From positions 71,281 to 135,280 of the forward strand of contig JAGVWE010000006.1 in NCBI GenBank assembly GCA_018304425.1: a stretch of 64,000 nt of DNA, in the 5' to 3' direction. This DNA comes from Candidatus Iainarchaeum sp. (lineage in GTDB: Archaea; Iainarchaeota; Iainarchaeia; Iainarchaeales; UBA10219). The notes below the pieces were generated by a model. It did no database searches, was not told the origin of the DNA, and saw only the letters and a list, made by a program, of their open reading frames with translations. A program made the translations under genes and the position numbers. This document shows, piece after piece, positions 59,733 to 64,000 of this stretch. Each line of letters begins with the position of its first letter. The stretch's first letter is position 1.

Positions 59733-59805
59733 TAGCCCCAAGGAGATTCGAACTCCTGTCTGCAGGGTCAGAGCCTGCCATCCTTGGCCACTAGACGATG
59801 GGGCT
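59733..59805 (-). tRNA. tRNA-Gln (anticodon CTG)
   Basis: Cloverleaf AGCCCCA...GCAGG-CTCTGAC-CCTGC...AGGAG-TTCGAAT-CTCCT-TGGGGCT-A; archaeal A1-U72; no encoded CCA. Confidence 0.95.
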
Positions 59806-59882: not shown

Positions 59883-60581
59883 TCAGCACATTGCCTTGGC
59901 TTCCGCCGGGACGAATTGCTGCATGACCCCGTCGAGGAAGCCCCACATGGCGTCAACGGCTTGGTTGACGGCTTGGATGGCCTTTGCTTCGTCTTCCTTG
60001 GATTGCACGGCTTCCGCCAGCAGGTGGCGCCAGGCGTTCGAGTGCTGGACGTCCGCAATGGCGTGGGTGGAGAAAAAGCCCAGGCTCTTCGCGTCGGACA
60101 AGCCGTAGAACTTGCGGAGGCCGTCCATCTTGGACTCGGACACCGCGGGCAGCATGGCCTCATAGGCCAGCAGGGCAGCCAAGCCCTCCAGGTAAGAGCC
60201 TTTCGTCAACCGCGTGAACGCGTTGACTTCGGCGGCGGTTTCCCGGATGGGAACGGCCGTGGTTGCCTGTGCCTCGTTCAAGCCCAGGCCTTCCGCGAAG
60301 TCCAGCCACAACCGGGTGTGCGGCTTGGGGTTGGCCGGGTTTTGGCCCAACTCGTCGCGGAGGTTTTCCCGGATGGCTTGCCGTGCCTCTTCCGAGGGCG
60401 CGAGGGCCAACAGGTTTTGGAGGTAAGCGGGGAACGCGCGTTCCAGGTGATAGTATTGGCGTGCGTACTCGCGGAGGCTCTCCCTTGAAAGCCCGCCCTG
60501 GCTCCACACCTGGTAGAATGGATGCCGGGTCAGGGACCGTTCCACGAGTATTTCCTCGATTGCCTGAATGAATGCAGTCAT
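59883..60581 (-). CDS. CADD/PqqC-like heme-oxygenase-fold dimetal oxidase (putative pABA synthase)
   Basis: HPFY..W..G.L, QYY, FPAYL, NL.DE, H..LW, AYE, K..GL...YG, H...D..H. Confidence 0.85.
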   Translation of the reverse strand: MTAFIQAIEEILVERSLTRHPFYQVWSQGGLSRESLREYARQYYHLERAFPAYLQNLLALAPSEEARQAIRENLRDELGQNPANPKPHTRLWLDFAEGLGLNEAQATTAVPIRETAAEVNAFTRLTKGSYLEGLAALLAYEAMLPAVSESKMDGLRKFYGLSDAKSLGFFSTHAIADVQHSNAWRHLLAEAVQSKEDEAKAIQAVNQAVDAMWGFLDGVMQQFVPAEAKAMC

Positions 60582-60618
60582 GCTTGCTCCCCCTTTAGCC
60601 GTTAAAAGCTAAGCGTAA

Positions 60619-61323
60619 TCATTTCCCGAAATTGCGTTGCGTGGACTCGTAGAAGTCAATGGCTTCGGCGAGGTCTTGTTGCGTGAGTTCGGGCCAGTAC
60701 TTGTCCATGAAGTACAACTCGGAGTAAGCGGACTGGTAGCTGAGGAAGCCGGACAACCTCCTTTGGCCGCCGGTGCGGATGATGAGGTCGGGGTCCGGGT
60801 AGTCCGCGTAGAGGTATTGCTTGAACGCGCGCTCGTCGATGGATTCGGCGCTCACTTTCTTGGAGCCGATGTCCCGGGCGAGGTGCTTGGCCGCGTCCAC
60901 GACCTCGGCTTGCCCGGAATAGCATAGGGCGACGTTCATGGTCTTGTTCTTGAAATTTTCCGTGAATTCCTCGGCGCGCGCCATCTTTTGCTGCAGGTTC
61001 TGGGGGAAGAGGCTCGTGCGGCCGATGAACTTCAAGCGGATTTGGTTGGCGTCGAAGAGGCTTCCCTCTTTCACCTTGTCGAGTTCGTGTTCGAAGATTT
61101 TGAACAGCACCTGGAGTTCGAGTTGGCTGCGGTTCCGGAAGTTGTCGAGGGCCAGCGCCCAAAACGTTCCCGTCTTGATGTGCGGGTAGTTCAGGGTCCA
61201 CTGGAGGACGTCCCAGGCTTTTTGCGCGCCCCGGAAGTAGCCGTCGAAGAGGTTGAGCCCCATTTTCTTGGCGTACCGCCGGTTGCCGTCGGGAATGAAG
61301 GCAATAGAAGTCAGTTCAGTCAC
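60619..61323 (-). CDS. uppS: cis-polyprenyl diphosphate synthase
   Basis: IPDGNRRYA, DPDLIIRTGG..RLSGFL.YQ.AYSE, WPE, RNFGK. Confidence 0.92.
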   Translation of the reverse strand: MTELTSIAFIPDGNRRYAKKMGLNLFDGYFRGAQKAWDVLQWTLNYPHIKTGTFWALALDNFRNRSQLELQVLFKIFEHELDKVKEGSLFDANQIRLKFIGRTSLFPQNLQQKMARAEEFTENFKNKTMNVALCYSGQAEVVDAAKHLARDIGSKKVSAESIDERAFKQYLYADYPDPDLIIRTGGQRRLSGFLSYQSAYSELYFMDKYWPELTQQDLAEAIDFYESTQRNFGK

Positions 61324-61389
61324 AAGGCCACCCGATTACTCCCGTCATGCAAGGAAATTGACTATTATTAGATAACAATTTATATTTAT

Positions 61390-62772
61390 AAACGTATGCT
61401 GGCCAAACCGGCTTTATAGCCCTTATAAGCCGGATTAAAGCAAAATTGTGAAAAGCACCCCCTACCGTAGTTCCATGGCGCTGGCACCGGAAATCTACTG
61501 TTCCGAAACGTTTAAACCCCTGAATGAAGCAATTGCTTCATGTGGCTCGTCAAAACAGTCCGAGTCAAAGCCTTTGAGCCGACCAGGGTCAAAAAACAGT
61601 TCATGGCGTTGTTGCTTGAAAACAGTAGACTAATGAACGAATACCTCTCGCTGATGCAGGCCCATCAAACGACTTCCAAGCAGCACCTGCACTTGCTGAG
61701 CTATGAAAGATTAACCCAGGCACTCAAGTTGCCAGCAGCGGTTGTTCAAACCGCAAGAGACAAGGCAGTGCAAATTTATCGCTCCCACCTTGCCATGAAA
61801 AAGGATGGGCCTGATTGCAAGCTACCGTGTTTCCGTATGACGACTCCCGTCCGCCTAGACAGAAGATGCTTCAACATCATTGAAACAAAGAACAAGTTGA
61901 CTTATGTTGCCGCAATGAGCGTAAAGGGCGGGCGCGTGCATGTTCCCTTGCTTGGACAGCGTTATCAATACAGGCAACTGAGAAAAATAGTCGCAGGGGA
62001 ATTAAAACTTGGTTCGGTGGAGCTAGTGAAAAGAGGCAAGGATTTCTATTTTCATCTCGCGATAAAAAAAGAAACCCCGGACATTGACCCGGATTACAGT
62101 TATACGCCTGTAGGCGTTGACCTTGGCCTAATCAACCTTTCAACTTCCGTGATTTTGAAAGGGGGGCGGCCATGCAACATACTCTTTCAACGTGGTGGCA
62201 ACGCCCTGGAAATGCGCAAGCGGTTCGCAACTTTCCGCGCGTCCCTGTCAAGAGCCGGGAAATTCCGACGTATCAGGGAAACAACGGGAAAGGAACGGCG
62301 ATGCATGCGCGACATCAACCACAAAATAAGCAAGTCCATCCTTGCACAGGCAAACCAAACAGAAAAGCCGATAATCGTGATGGAGCGGCTTACCTACATC
62401 CGTGAAAGAATCCACAGGGGAAAAAAATTGAACGCAATGCTGCATAGTTGGGCTTTCGCTCAATTACAGGAATTCATAGCCTATAAAGCTGCCTGGGCCG
62501 GCATCCCGGTGATGTATATAAACCCAAAATACACCTCCCAGCAATGCAATAAATGCGGTTTCACGTCAAAAGCCAATAGGCTGGGGAGAAGCTTTAAGTG
62601 TGGAGACTGCGGATATGAATTAAACGCCGACTTGAATGCAGCCATCAACATTGCCAAGGCATATAAGAACTTTGCACCAGGCTATAGGTCCGGTGCATTG
62701 GGCGCACGTGACAGCGCCTTAACCCTGCAAGCAAGGGCTTGACTGGGAAGCACGCGCAAGCGGGCATGTCAC
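61390..62772 (+). mobile_element. Non-autonomous IS200/IS605 (IS1341-type) element, tnpB only; left end uncertain
   Basis: Lower GC than host genes; right end TGTCAC at 62767-62772; candidate TAM TTTAT at 61385-61389; hairpin 61408-61433; no tnpA. Confidence 0.6.
61540..62742 (+). CDS. tnpB: RNA-guided endonuclease TnpB
   Basis: RuvC triad GVDLG, VMERL, NADLNAA; zinc finger CNKCG...CGDCG; YTSQ. Confidence 0.92.
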   Translation: MWLVKTVRVKAFEPTRVKKQFMALLLENSRLMNEYLSLMQAHQTTSKQHLHLLSYERLTQALKLPAAVVQTARDKAVQIYRSHLAMKKDGPDCKLPCFRMTTPVRLDRRCFNIIETKNKLTYVAAMSVKGGRVHVPLLGQRYQYRQLRKIVAGELKLGSVELVKRGKDFYFHLAIKKETPDIDPDYSYTPVGVDLGLINLSTSVILKGGRPCNILFQRGGNALEMRKRFATFRASLSRAGKFRRIRETTGKERRCMRDINHKISKSILAQANQTEKPIIVMERLTYIRERIHRGKKLNAMLHSWAFAQLQEFIAYKAAWAGIPVMYINPKYTSQQCNKCGFTSKANRLGRSFKCGDCGYELNADLNAAINIAKAYKNFAPGYRSGALGARDSALTLQARA

Positions 62773-62790
62773 AAACGTATCCCCTATGAG
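62672..62790 (+). ncRNA. omegaRNA scaffold overlapping the tnpB 3' end, plus guide (from 62773)
   Basis: Stems TGCACC/GGTGCA and GGCGC/GCGCC; loop GTGACA (62708-62713) is complementary to terminal TGTCAC (pseudoknot). Confidence 0.7.
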
Positions 62791-62802
62791 AGGCTTTAAA
62801 TC

Positions 62803-63039
62803 GTGACGCCGAACAGGCAAGCAGAGGTCCAAAAAATCGTGGCCGAATTAAGGCAAAAAATACAGGAAATAGAGGAGCTAAAGGAACGGTTAAACCGCTT
62901 CCAAAGGTCTCCCTTTTCGGCGGAAAAAAGCCGCGCTATGCTGGAGGAAATAAAGGTTCCCAGCCTCGAAGCCCTCCGGGAAACCGAGCGGGAGGCCAGG
63001 GCCGCGTACCAGGGGAAGGCCAGGGCCGCGGCCAAGTGA
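62803..63039 (+). CDS. Small coiled-coil hypothetical protein
   Basis: Heptad-like sequence; overlaps the DUF192 start by 4 nt. Confidence 0.55.
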   Translation: MTPNRQAEVQKIVAELRQKIQEIEELKERLNRFQRSPFSAEKSRAMLEEIKVPSLEALRETEREARAAYQGKARAAAK

Positions 63040-63398
63040 ACTCCATGCCCTTGTTCAACCGGTCCACGGGAGAAAAACTCGTTGACCGCGTGCGCGTGGC
63101 AAAGGGTTTGTGGGCGCAGTTCCAGGGCCTCATGTTCGAGCGTCCCAGCCGGTTCGATTACGCGCTGGTGTTCCCGTTGCCCTTCGAGTCCAGGGTGGGG
63201 GCCAGCGTGCACATGTTGTTCGTGTTCTTTTCCCTGGACCTTGTTTTTTTGGACAAGGCCAAGCGCGTGGTGGACAAAAAGGAAAACTTCAAGCCCTTCA
63301 GCCTCAATTACACGCCGAAAAAGCCCGCCAGGTACTTCATCGAGTTGCCGGCCGGTCTCGGACAGGGGATTCGGCTGGGGGACGAGTTGACCTGGTGA
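63036..63398 (+). CDS. DUF192 family protein
   Basis: GLMF, VHMLFVFFSLDLVFLD, YFIELPAG, GD. Confidence 0.88.
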   Translation: MNSMPLFNRSTGEKLVDRVRVAKGLWAQFQGLMFERPSRFDYALVFPLPFESRVGASVHMLFVFFSLDLVFLDKAKRVVDKKENFKPFSLNYTPKKPARYFIELPAGLGQGIRLGDELTW

Positions 63399-63419
63399 AC
63401 CAGGGGAAAAAATATTTAT

Positions 63420-63477
63420 GTCCCGCCGTAGGCGGGACGACGTATAGCGCGCAGCCGGCGCTCTCGTCCGGCTGCGC
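63420..63477. repeat. Two adjacent GC-rich hairpins
   Basis: GTCCCGCC-GTA-GGCGGGAC and GCGCAGCCGG-N9-CCGGCTGCGC. Confidence 0.6.
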
Positions 63478-63552
63478 ATATCGTTAGTTATTTAAACTTG
63501 TGCGGTGGCAAGCATGTTTAGGGGTTCGTCCAAAGTTGGGGAGGCAAAAACG

Positions 63553-64000
63553 ATGTCAAACAACGACCAGAATTATTTGGCGCTTTCACTCATCATCGCG
63601 GCCCTCATCGTGGGCGGTTCCATGATTTGGGCGTCCAACAACCTTGTGGCGGGCGCGGACAGGCTGCAGGTCGCGGCTCCATCGACGGGCCTGGCCATCC
63701 TGCCGCCGCAGGCGCCGGAGCCAAGCGGCAACCAGCCCGAAGCGGCGCCGCCAGCGGCTGCCCCCACCGGCCCGGAAATGAAGGACTTGTTGAAGGACGC
63801 GGCCGGAAAGATGGGCAGAGACGATGCCCCTGTTCTTTTCGTCGAGTACTCGGACTTCCAGTGCCCGTTCTGCGGGCGATGGTATTCGGATTCGAAAGCC
63901 CAGTTGAAGCGGGACTACGTGGACACGGGCAAGGTCTTGTTCGTCTACAAGGACTATCCTTTGAGCTTCCCCCCCAACGCCGGCCCAGCCGCCAACGCGG
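63553..64000 (+). CDS. DsbA/BdbD-like thioredoxin-fold protein, 3' part outside window
   Basis: N-terminal TM, Pro/Ala linker, EYSDFQCPFC, YVDTGKV.FVYKDYPL. Confidence 0.9.
   Translation, partial: MSNNDQNYLALSLIIAALIVGGSMIWASNNLVAGADRLQVAAPSTGLAILPPQAPEPSGNQPEAAPPAAAPTGPEMKDLLKDAAGKMGRDDAPVLFVEYSDFQCPFCGRWYSDSKAQLKRDYVDTGKVLFVYKDYPLSFPPNAGPAANA

Follow-up and report, generated by a model that had tools for sequence, protein, structure and literature searches.

The window analysed here is a 64,000-nucleotide stretch of contig JAGVWE010000006.1 of Candidatus Iainarchaeum sp., and its last 3.4 kb contain in this order the uppS gene on the minus strand, an AT-rich spacer, a tnpB gene, an open reading frame (ORF) for a coiled-coil protein and a DUF192 gene. 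The tnpB gene is part of a mobile element of the IS200/IS605 type, tnpB-only (IS1341) kind, which lies between uppS and the operon of the small ORF and DUF192. At its left border the element has a TTTAT motif followed directly by the octamer AAACGTAT, and the same eight nucleotides open its right flank, where the guide of a predicted omegaRNA would be read. We estimate at roughly 0.55 the probability that the left octamer is a scar of insertion or repair next to the target/transposon-adjacent motif (TAM), a by-product of the installation of the element and not an operator evolved for uppS. The features are listed in Table 1; the initial annotation, made from the sequence alone, had placed TTTAT, the left octamer and the end of TGTCAC at these same positions, all of them correctly.

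Table 1. Features of the region between uppS and the DUF192 gene, with positions in the window.
Feature	Position	Strand	Basis or remark
uppS (cis-prenyltransferase), 234 aa, GTG start	60619..61323	-	Pfam Prenyltransf 1.2e-60; NCBIfam uppS TIGR00055 195.7 bits (cut-off 109.55); native gene on the left side, pointing away from the element
Native AT-rich DNA upstream of uppS	61324..61384	.	TATA-like runs on the minus strand ~40-75 nt before the uppS start
TTTAT, putative TAM at the left junction	61385..61389	+	Junctions of the homologues
Left copy of AAACGTAT, equal to the first 8 nt of right flank/guide	61390..61397	+	Followed by GCTG
50-nt stretch between octamer and conserved left end, origin unexplained	61398..61447	+	Sequence
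Conserved left-end region, starting GTGAAAAG	61448..61539	+	Holds CACCGGAAA (61485-61493) and TATA-like GTTTAAAC (61510-61517)
tnpB, 400 aa	61540..62742	+	Pfam Cas12f1-like_TNB 8.7e-26; NCBIfam guided_TnpB 182.4 bits (cut-off 100)
Predicted omegaRNA scaffold, minimal extent (5' end undefined)	62673..62772	+	Covarying stems; pseudoknot arms 62708-62713 and 62767-62772
Predicted guide region and native right flank	62773..62788	+	Opens with the right copy of AAACGTAT (62773-62780)
Native right neighbours: 78-aa coiled-coil ORF (62803-63039) and DUF192 gene (63036-63398), overlapping	62803..63398	+	

The TnpB protein was compared with those of seven loci at 51-58% protein identity, L003, L004, L005, L021 (= L026), L022 (= L028), L027 and L029, which together with the window make up the eight loci referred to below. 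The RuvC triad (D194, E282, D364) and the zinc finger CxxC pairs (C336/C339 and C354/C357) are invariant in this alignment, and the protein is predicted to be a competent nuclease. Its best matches among solved structures are Cas12f-like chains (8j3r, 8j12, 7wju and others, ~1e-22), with ISDra2 TnpB at 4e-8. No tnpA gene (Y1_Tnp) is present in or beside 61390-62772, and the only Y1_Tnp match of the genome (IS200 type, 107.9 bits for a cut-off of 55) is on another contig; the first description of a solo TnpB with an intact RuvC triad and without an adjoining tnpA is borne out by the profile matches and the invariant residues. The tnpB of the window is the only one in the host genome (1.48 Mb in 7 contigs, 58% G+C), and searches of this genome for further copies of the element by DNA, by protein and by short-word BLAST of both ends returned only the element itself. 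A metagenome contig (L024) carries the same locus with the element present and is 98.9% identical overall, with one base difference within 60432-63740 (62038, giving K167E). One low-depth contig (depth 3.7) of the public run X7 has C for T at 61541, which would destroy the tnpB ATG and may be an error. Loci on viral contigs, 35 in number, were all distant (at most 48% identity over parts) and were left out of the comparison.

In the alignment of the eight loci, 17 of the 45 predicted scaffold pairs keep pairing through changes on both sides, and the similarity between all eight halts right after GT(C/T)AC, which corresponds in the window to the end of TGTCAC at 62772. This halt and the empty sites of L021 and L022 described below support 62772 as the end of scaffold and element, where the initial annotation had put it. 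As the scaffold ends there, the guide is read from the native right flank, which begins with AAACGTATCCCC (62773-62784); the alignment shows a predicted omegaRNA with its guide starting at 62773, and a guide length of 16 nt was assumed from other TnpBs, as given in part of PMC10705468. The pseudoknot proposed between GTGACA and TGTCAC is compatible with the alignment rather than proven by it: its arms pair in 47 of 48 cells, where shifting the partner gives 15-70%, and the changes seen are one-sided in every pair. The right-end hairpin (GCACGC-GCAA-GCGGGC, 62750-62765) is indeed very short, about 8-9 nt shorter than those of the homologues, and folds no better than shuffled sequences (z = -0.16). 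In Rfam no family matches the putative omegaRNA; nothing is found at E up to 1 in 60500-64000, and the whole window yields one tRNA only (59733-59805).

At the other border the octamer lies, as first described, in the AT-rich region upstream of the divergent uppS, and its match to the guide stops sharply after 8 nt. When the 300-nt segment preceding the ATG was shuffled 2000 times, 0.75% of the shuffles contained a match of at least 8 nt to the beginning of the right flank. Counting both strands, the genome contains 21 copies of the octamer where 20.8 would be expected, so that it shows no enrichment. Among the 3,938 TTAT sites of the 1.48-Mb genome only that at the left border has eight or more matches to the guide seed, while from the genome base frequencies about 0.03 sites with an 8-nt seed would be expected. 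The next best sites, three in number, have six, and the best match of the 16-nt guide elsewhere in the genome has 4 mismatches and no seed. To the right of the octamer and of the 50 nt which follow it, GTGA or GTGG plus CAC(C/T)GGAAA is found upstream of tnpB in all eight loci, and in the window the TATA-like GTTTAAAC, 23-30 nt before the tnpB ATG, may have a promoter role. Placing the start of the left end at GTGA everywhere turned out to be too simple, verified junctions being 6 nt (L022) and 149 nt (L021) upstream of GTGA. The motif CACCGGAAA(C/T), often present twice and followed by TCTCTTTC and TTTAAAA, is found upstream of many different genes in a related genus, g55 (L085-L104), as well as in the left ends of the tnpB elements, and looks like a host promoter or regulator motif which was borrowed or is shared.

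The homologous loci could be compared with empty sites. L021 is empty in two congeners (sister genomes), in which ...ATTAT/GTAGACTC... is contiguous, and L022 in three congeners, in which ...GGTTTTAT is contiguous with the homologue of ATA(G/C)TACAG (...TTTAT/ATA(G/C)TACAG...). As shown for these close homologues, the clade appears to insert exactly 3' of TTAT or TTTAT and to end at GT(C/T)AC, in keeping with the TTTAT-type TAM that had been proposed for the window. L027 and L029 are 90%-identical copies in one genome and read TTTAT / TAATTAGC / C-GTGA...GGATGTCAC / TAATTAGC / TTCC and ATTAT / ATATAATATTCT / GTGAG...GGATGTCAC / ATATAATATTCT / C, respectively. The empty sites of L027, found in two genomes of the same family, have a single TAATTAG... 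with GTTATT or similar before it, where the occupied site has two. Since the empty sites are single-copy the L027 repeat arose with the insertion, as a genuine duplication of 8 bp of target. The repeats of L027 and L029 differ in sequence although the two elements are siblings, from which it follows that every insertion generates its own repeat and that the element does not bring it along. In register, the bases after the left TTAT and those after the right end are identical at 8/8 positions in the window, 8/8 in L027, 12/12 in L029, 9/12 in L021 (binomial P = 0.0011) and 3/12 in L022. An exact repeat of the start of the right flank is thus present at the left border of three of the eight loci (shuffle P = 0.0075 for the window, 0.0115 and 0.001 for the other two), with L021 as an imperfect fourth. 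In terms of the absence of target duplication by which the family is characterised, the window, L027 and L029 depart from it with 8, 8 and 12 nt, and L022 has none. For L029 no syntenic pair of flanks was found as an empty site, and none was found for L003 and L004, the flanks of which are non-syntenic in the sister genome.

Some of these loci have peculiarities of their own. The tnpB of L022 (665-1928) is broken, since the frame from its ATG stops after 103 codons and the remainder matches in another frame; CTAATT, considered here as a left repeat, was wrong, being native DNA also present in the empty sites. In L021 the inserted DNA opens with a 146-nt prefix (2711-2856) absent elsewhere in the genus. 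The last bases of this prefix are an inner TTAT, after which the usual left end (TTTGTGAG) follows at once, and the prefix may be DNA carried from an earlier site. Beyond its first 12 nt the prefix finds no support as a diverged copy of the right flank (semi-global P = 0.5-0.65 and best local block P = 0.084, both for the sequence from 2723 onwards). The genomes of L021 and L022 are labelled Chloroflexi and Falkowbacteria bacterium and were placed in one genus of the order of the window genome, so that the labels look unreliable. In L003 the first 8 nt of the right flank (ATATAAAC; 1472-1479 and 2742-2749) recur as a TATA-like box which precedes the tnpB ATG of that locus by 29 nt (shuffle P = 0.0115), in a geometry unlike that of the border repeats, and this may be a chance match between two TATA-like runs. 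Around positions 200-315 of L027 (genome G054) a sequence of about 100 nt matches both strands at more than 40 places of that genome and looks like a miniature mobile repeat. Thirteen more distant TnpB loci were inspected as well, and in 4 of the 12 with a readable frame the best exact flank repeats were of 9-10 nt; the ends of these elements being undefined, such repeats are indistinguishable from chance.

The right end of the genome's Y1 tnpA element has a strong G+C-rich hairpin (z = -3.5) followed by GGATGTCA, the same build as in the tnpB elements, and 14 of the 29 tnpA loci of the order end in this way. As the ends of tnpA and tnpB elements match, the clade is, as far as its ends indicate, a normal IS200/IS605 lineage with partners available in trans. 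The homologues and the tnpA element of the genome have hairpins of 7-9 bp, G+C-rich, before GGATGTCA. The window copy is probably immobilised with its gene still good, as judged from the degenerate end hairpins, the single copy and the same structure in L024 and in the junction-bridging contigs of two other runs. The only Y1 tnpA lies at a contig end (C1:1-~620; L135/L136), its right end is cut by the end of the contig, and on the left, where it has GTGGCGAGCGGGAAACC and a hairpin, it merges with the 3' end of an ORF which by eye resembles a tyrosine recombinase.

The same arrangement of TTAT and 8-12 nt stands beside unrelated genes, and at L027 it is a proven duplication; this is what leads to reading the window octamer as a scar, and of the two explanations offered by the initial annotation it is the second, an element sitting in TTTAT^AAACGTATCCCC with the octamer as an insertion or repair scar, that fits best. 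The copy would have entered at TTTAT^ (61389/61390), and AAACGTAT at 61390-61397 would be one arm of a short direct duplication of the first TAM-adjacent bases of the target. In the usual description TnpB elements leave no scar as they move: peeling and pasting are the work of TnpA, and once TnpB has cut the emptied site the copy is restored by recombination; TnpB also lowers the transposition of ISDra2. In the mechanism that we propose, TnpB would cut the unoccupied target at a distance of a few to some 20 bases from the TAM, so that the first 8-12 nt of the target stay attached on the TAM side of the break. Imprecise joining would then link this side to the left end of a copy that at its right end is already continuous with the same flank. 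Such imprecise repair during homing would explain why the repeat starts at the TAM, why its length varies (0, 8, 8, 12) and why it is identical to the guide, and we put it forward tentatively, as possible rather than probable. A side effect of the scar is that the element has at its own left border a site made of TAM and 8-nt seed.

Several observations weigh against the scar. Between the octamer and the conserved left end of the window there are 50 nt of unexplained DNA, while L027 and L029 have no such gap between the repeat and that end. Nor do all loci show the duplication: the insertion of L022 is clean and without a repeat, that of L021 has an imperfect one, and L003, L004 and L005 have no border repeat and no empty sites to compare. 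For the window itself the comparison of the uppS-DUF192 interval in relatives, recommended by the initial annotation, gave no empty site; the host genome is alone in its genus and family, the nearest relatives being at the level of the order, and L024 and the contigs of public runs that reach a junction all carry the element. Of the 17 public runs listed, among which there is no RNA run, the contigs of four (X7, X10, X12 and X14) are low-depth pieces; some of them bridge both junctions with the element, and none shows a joint across it, a result that does not bear on rare empty alleles. In five loci of relatives the distance from the uppS start to the equivalent of 62803 is about 142-222 nt, which fits a junction further to the right (133-154 nt) better than the 96 nt left if all from 61390 is inserted. 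The initial annotation followed the textbook rule in stating that no target-site duplication comes from IS200/IS605 elements: its absence is part of the definition of the family and canonical peel-and-paste makes none, as stated in parts of PMC13565253, PMC7290912 and PMC3119063, and L022 shows this outcome. The proposed repair mechanism was not found described in the literature searched, nor, supplementary files not covered, was any report found there of TAM-adjacent target duplications or of self-binding at the left junction for TnpB.

The unexplained 50 nt keep alive the alternative that they and the octamer are native DNA and that the junction is further to the right, either 3' of the inner CTTAT (61426/61427) or at about 61447, before GTGA, the octamer being a pre-existing repeat of a promoter element. 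Besides the intergenic lengths of the relatives, which it fits better, this is favoured by the bases after the inner CTTAT (AAGCCGGATTAAAGC...GTGA), which resemble those before the left end of the genome's tnpA element (GGATTAGCC GTGG) and the (A/T)TTAG(C) before GTG in five other tnpA elements and in L027, and by several of the 21 genomic copies of AAACGTAT adjoining TATA-like runs. However, a junction at 61426/61427 needs TTATAAACGTAT twice within about 40 nt, which is very unlikely by chance for an octamer that is not enriched, a junction at about 61447 has no preceding TTAT, contrary to three homologous empty sites, and the analogous repeat of L027 is single-copy in the empty sites; we regard the alternative as unlikely. 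The 50-nt stretch contains inner TTAT motifs (61414-61417 and 61423-61426) and an imperfect hairpin (61408-61419 with 61422-61433) that is not significant (z = -1.34). Its positions 61429-61445 match 62842-62858, in the 5' part of the small ORF, at 15 of 17 bases (P = 0.003 against random genome windows), and a semi-global comparison gave P = 0.005. As a patchwork of nearby sequence it was rejected, its 12 exact words of at least 7 nt not being significant against shuffles (mean 7.7, maximum 17).

The initial annotation had preferred an RNA-guided repressor of uppS or of the element itself. In a wider form, exapted or built-in, regulation would mean that TnpB and omegaRNA bind TTTAT and the 8-nt seed without cutting and repress uppS, block transcription into the element or hinder TnpA at the left junction; this would be compatible with an origin as a scar, the scar supplying the site. 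The TAM is validated in the homologues, the TAM-proximal match of 8 nt is perfect and is the only one among the 3,938 TTAT sites, a TAM with seed at the element's own left border recurs in three to four of the eight loci, the site overlaps on the minus strand a TATA-like run about 60-75 nt before the uppS start, and the element seems to be immobilised while its ORF is intact. Such binding is biochemically plausible: ISDge10 TnpB, although active as a nuclease, makes no breaks in the DNA that it engages when its guide is 10 nt long (PMC13507860), TldR guides are of 9-11 nt with a seed of about 6 nt (PMC10705468), and Cas effectors are described as repressing their own promoters by means of degenerate guide RNAs (10.1101/2023.03.10.532045). 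On the other hand the RuvC triad and the zinc finger are intact, unlike in TldR, and the pairing is of 8 nt with 2 G/C inside a full-length guide that otherwise mismatches, while in PMC13507860 a higher GC content gave stronger effects and the optimum was 10 nt of the 8-20 nt tested. With 150 nt between the site and the tnpB ATG, and about 120 nt between the site and the TATA-like box of tnpB, there is no overlap with the tnpB promoter, and the length of the match varies from 0 to 12 among the homologues, as it would for a by-product. Nor do the homologues show an association with uppS: homologues of UppS, of the small ORF and of DUF192 are absent from the seven homologous loci and from four longer cuts of four of them. 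Guide and target, which had been proposed as a test, do co-vary, but the left site is in each case a copy of the element's own flank and has no link with uppS. The comparison thus gives the repressor no support, the same layout being found at homologues beside unrelated genes, and nothing in the sequences suggests selection for a regulatory use of the site; regulation in any of these forms seems quite unlikely.

A more specific conjecture joins the two ideas, namely that this archaeal TnpB clade would be installed or re-installed by way of a TnpB-made break of which a TAM-proximal 8-12-nt stub of the target is kept at the left border, and that the resulting site of TAM and seed would then be bound uncut at the left junction, as a lock on excision or as a roadblock, and would throttle in this genome the promoter of uppS, the product of which supplies the lipid carrier of glycan synthesis. 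We consider it improbable.

A genuine target-site duplication could also come from another route of transposition, such as a transposase acting in trans with a staggered cut, in place of Y1 TnpA or TnpB-linked repair. Direct repeats do flank the element and for L027 a duplication is proven, the ends are weakly inverted (GTGA...TCAC), and the review PMC13565253 mentions elements of the DDE, tyrosine-recombinase or Cas1 kind that have inverted repeats and contain TnpB genes. Against this the length of the repeat varies (0, 8, 8, 12 and an imperfect 12) and its start is always at TTAT, whereas a DDE stagger is fixed; real terminal inverted repeats are lacking, the ends are like those of the Y1 tnpA elements of the same order, and L022 was inserted cleanly in the Y1 manner, which makes such a route very unlikely. 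Pure coincidence, an AT-rich octamer in an AT-rich spacer, agrees with the genome-wide count of the octamer and with the fact that the match was found by looking for it, but hardly with a shuffle P of 0.0075 for the window alone, with a position directly after the TAM at the sole TTAT site with an 8-nt seed, or with the recurrence of the pattern with different sequences at two 90%-identical copies.

As to the native surroundings, the host genome encodes a TATA-binding protein, the family of which otherwise scored only in four archaeal control genomes, and a geranylgeranyl reductase, so that the host is an archaeon and the language of TATA boxes is appropriate. The divergent pair of uppS and DUF192 is kept in 18 of 25 uppS loci from relatives of the same taxonomic order, and a homologue of the small ORF between them is detectable in 6 of the 25; given this conserved layout, the element sits in a conserved bidirectional promoter region, in which the TATA-like runs at 61324..61384 may have a promoter role. 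Many of the uppS neighbourhoods of relatives (L167-L184) have a near-palindrome TTTTAAAGG(A/T)TATC(C)TTTAAAA between uppS and the small ORF, resembling the two back-to-back TATA boxes of a bidirectional promoter. On the right side only 1 nt separates a TATA-like CTTTAAAT (62794-62801) from the GTG at 62803 that is listed as the start of the 78-aa ORF. The ORF may really begin at 62839, with an in-frame GTG that has GAGGT (62824-62828) in front of it.

For the window alone the finding is a modest one, that of an ordinary and probably immobilised solo TnpB in a promoter region. It is the rule of no duplication in the family which makes the scar unusual. Repeats of variable length anchored at the TAM across a clade would mean either that the copy is at times restored imprecisely, the repeats then recording the position of the TnpB cut and the manner of its repair, or that tnpB-only elements have another route of movement, an old open question for the IS1341 group. 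A scar of this kind would give each such copy a partial target for itself, which is raw material for RNA-guided repressors such as TldR.

Cas12 descends from TnpB elements, and Cas12f (type V-F) proteins provide the closest solved structures by sequence and the Pfam Cas12f1-like_TNB match. The protein of the window is nevertheless not a Cas12f, since it scores 166.3 bits with NCBIfam Cas12f2 for a cut-off of 450, while guided_TnpB passes, and Rfam finds no CRISPR-related RNA family in the window, where no search for an array with a repeat finder was made. With the autorepression of Cas effectors by degenerate guides (CreR-type) it would share an active nuclease able to bind a promoter site uncut through incomplete pairing on the PAM/TAM side, as outlined in part of 10.1101/2023.03.10.532045. 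In the CreR type, however, a dedicated short guide is directed to the effector's own promoter, whereas here an ordinary guide matches 8 nt at a site 150 nt upstream of tnpB, with no sign of selection. The nuclease-dead repressors of the TldR type are likewise derived from TnpB and act at a site of TAM and guide in a promoter region with short pairing, as described in part of PMC10705468, but have lost the RuvC triad and have a target conserved with a particular gene. As the triad is intact here and no gene association is conserved, the neighbours being unrelated and the match explained by duplication, the element does not, on its sequence, qualify as a TldR. The likeness is greatest with the IS1341 group of IS200/IS605 (ISDra2/IS608-type and haloarchaeal IS1341-type), with which it shares the RuvC triad and zinc finger, a predicted omegaRNA scaffold running from the overlapped 3' end of the gene to the right end, a guide supplied by the flanking DNA, a probable insertion site 3' of a short T-rich motif and a cognate Y1 tnpA with the same type of end elsewhere in the genome. 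It differs from this group in the degenerate end hairpins of the window copy and in the 8-12-nt direct repeat of the target, starting from the TAM, that brackets three to four of the eight members. Apart from these hairpins it belongs to the tnpB-only elements of IS200/IS605 by every feature except the absence of a target duplication.

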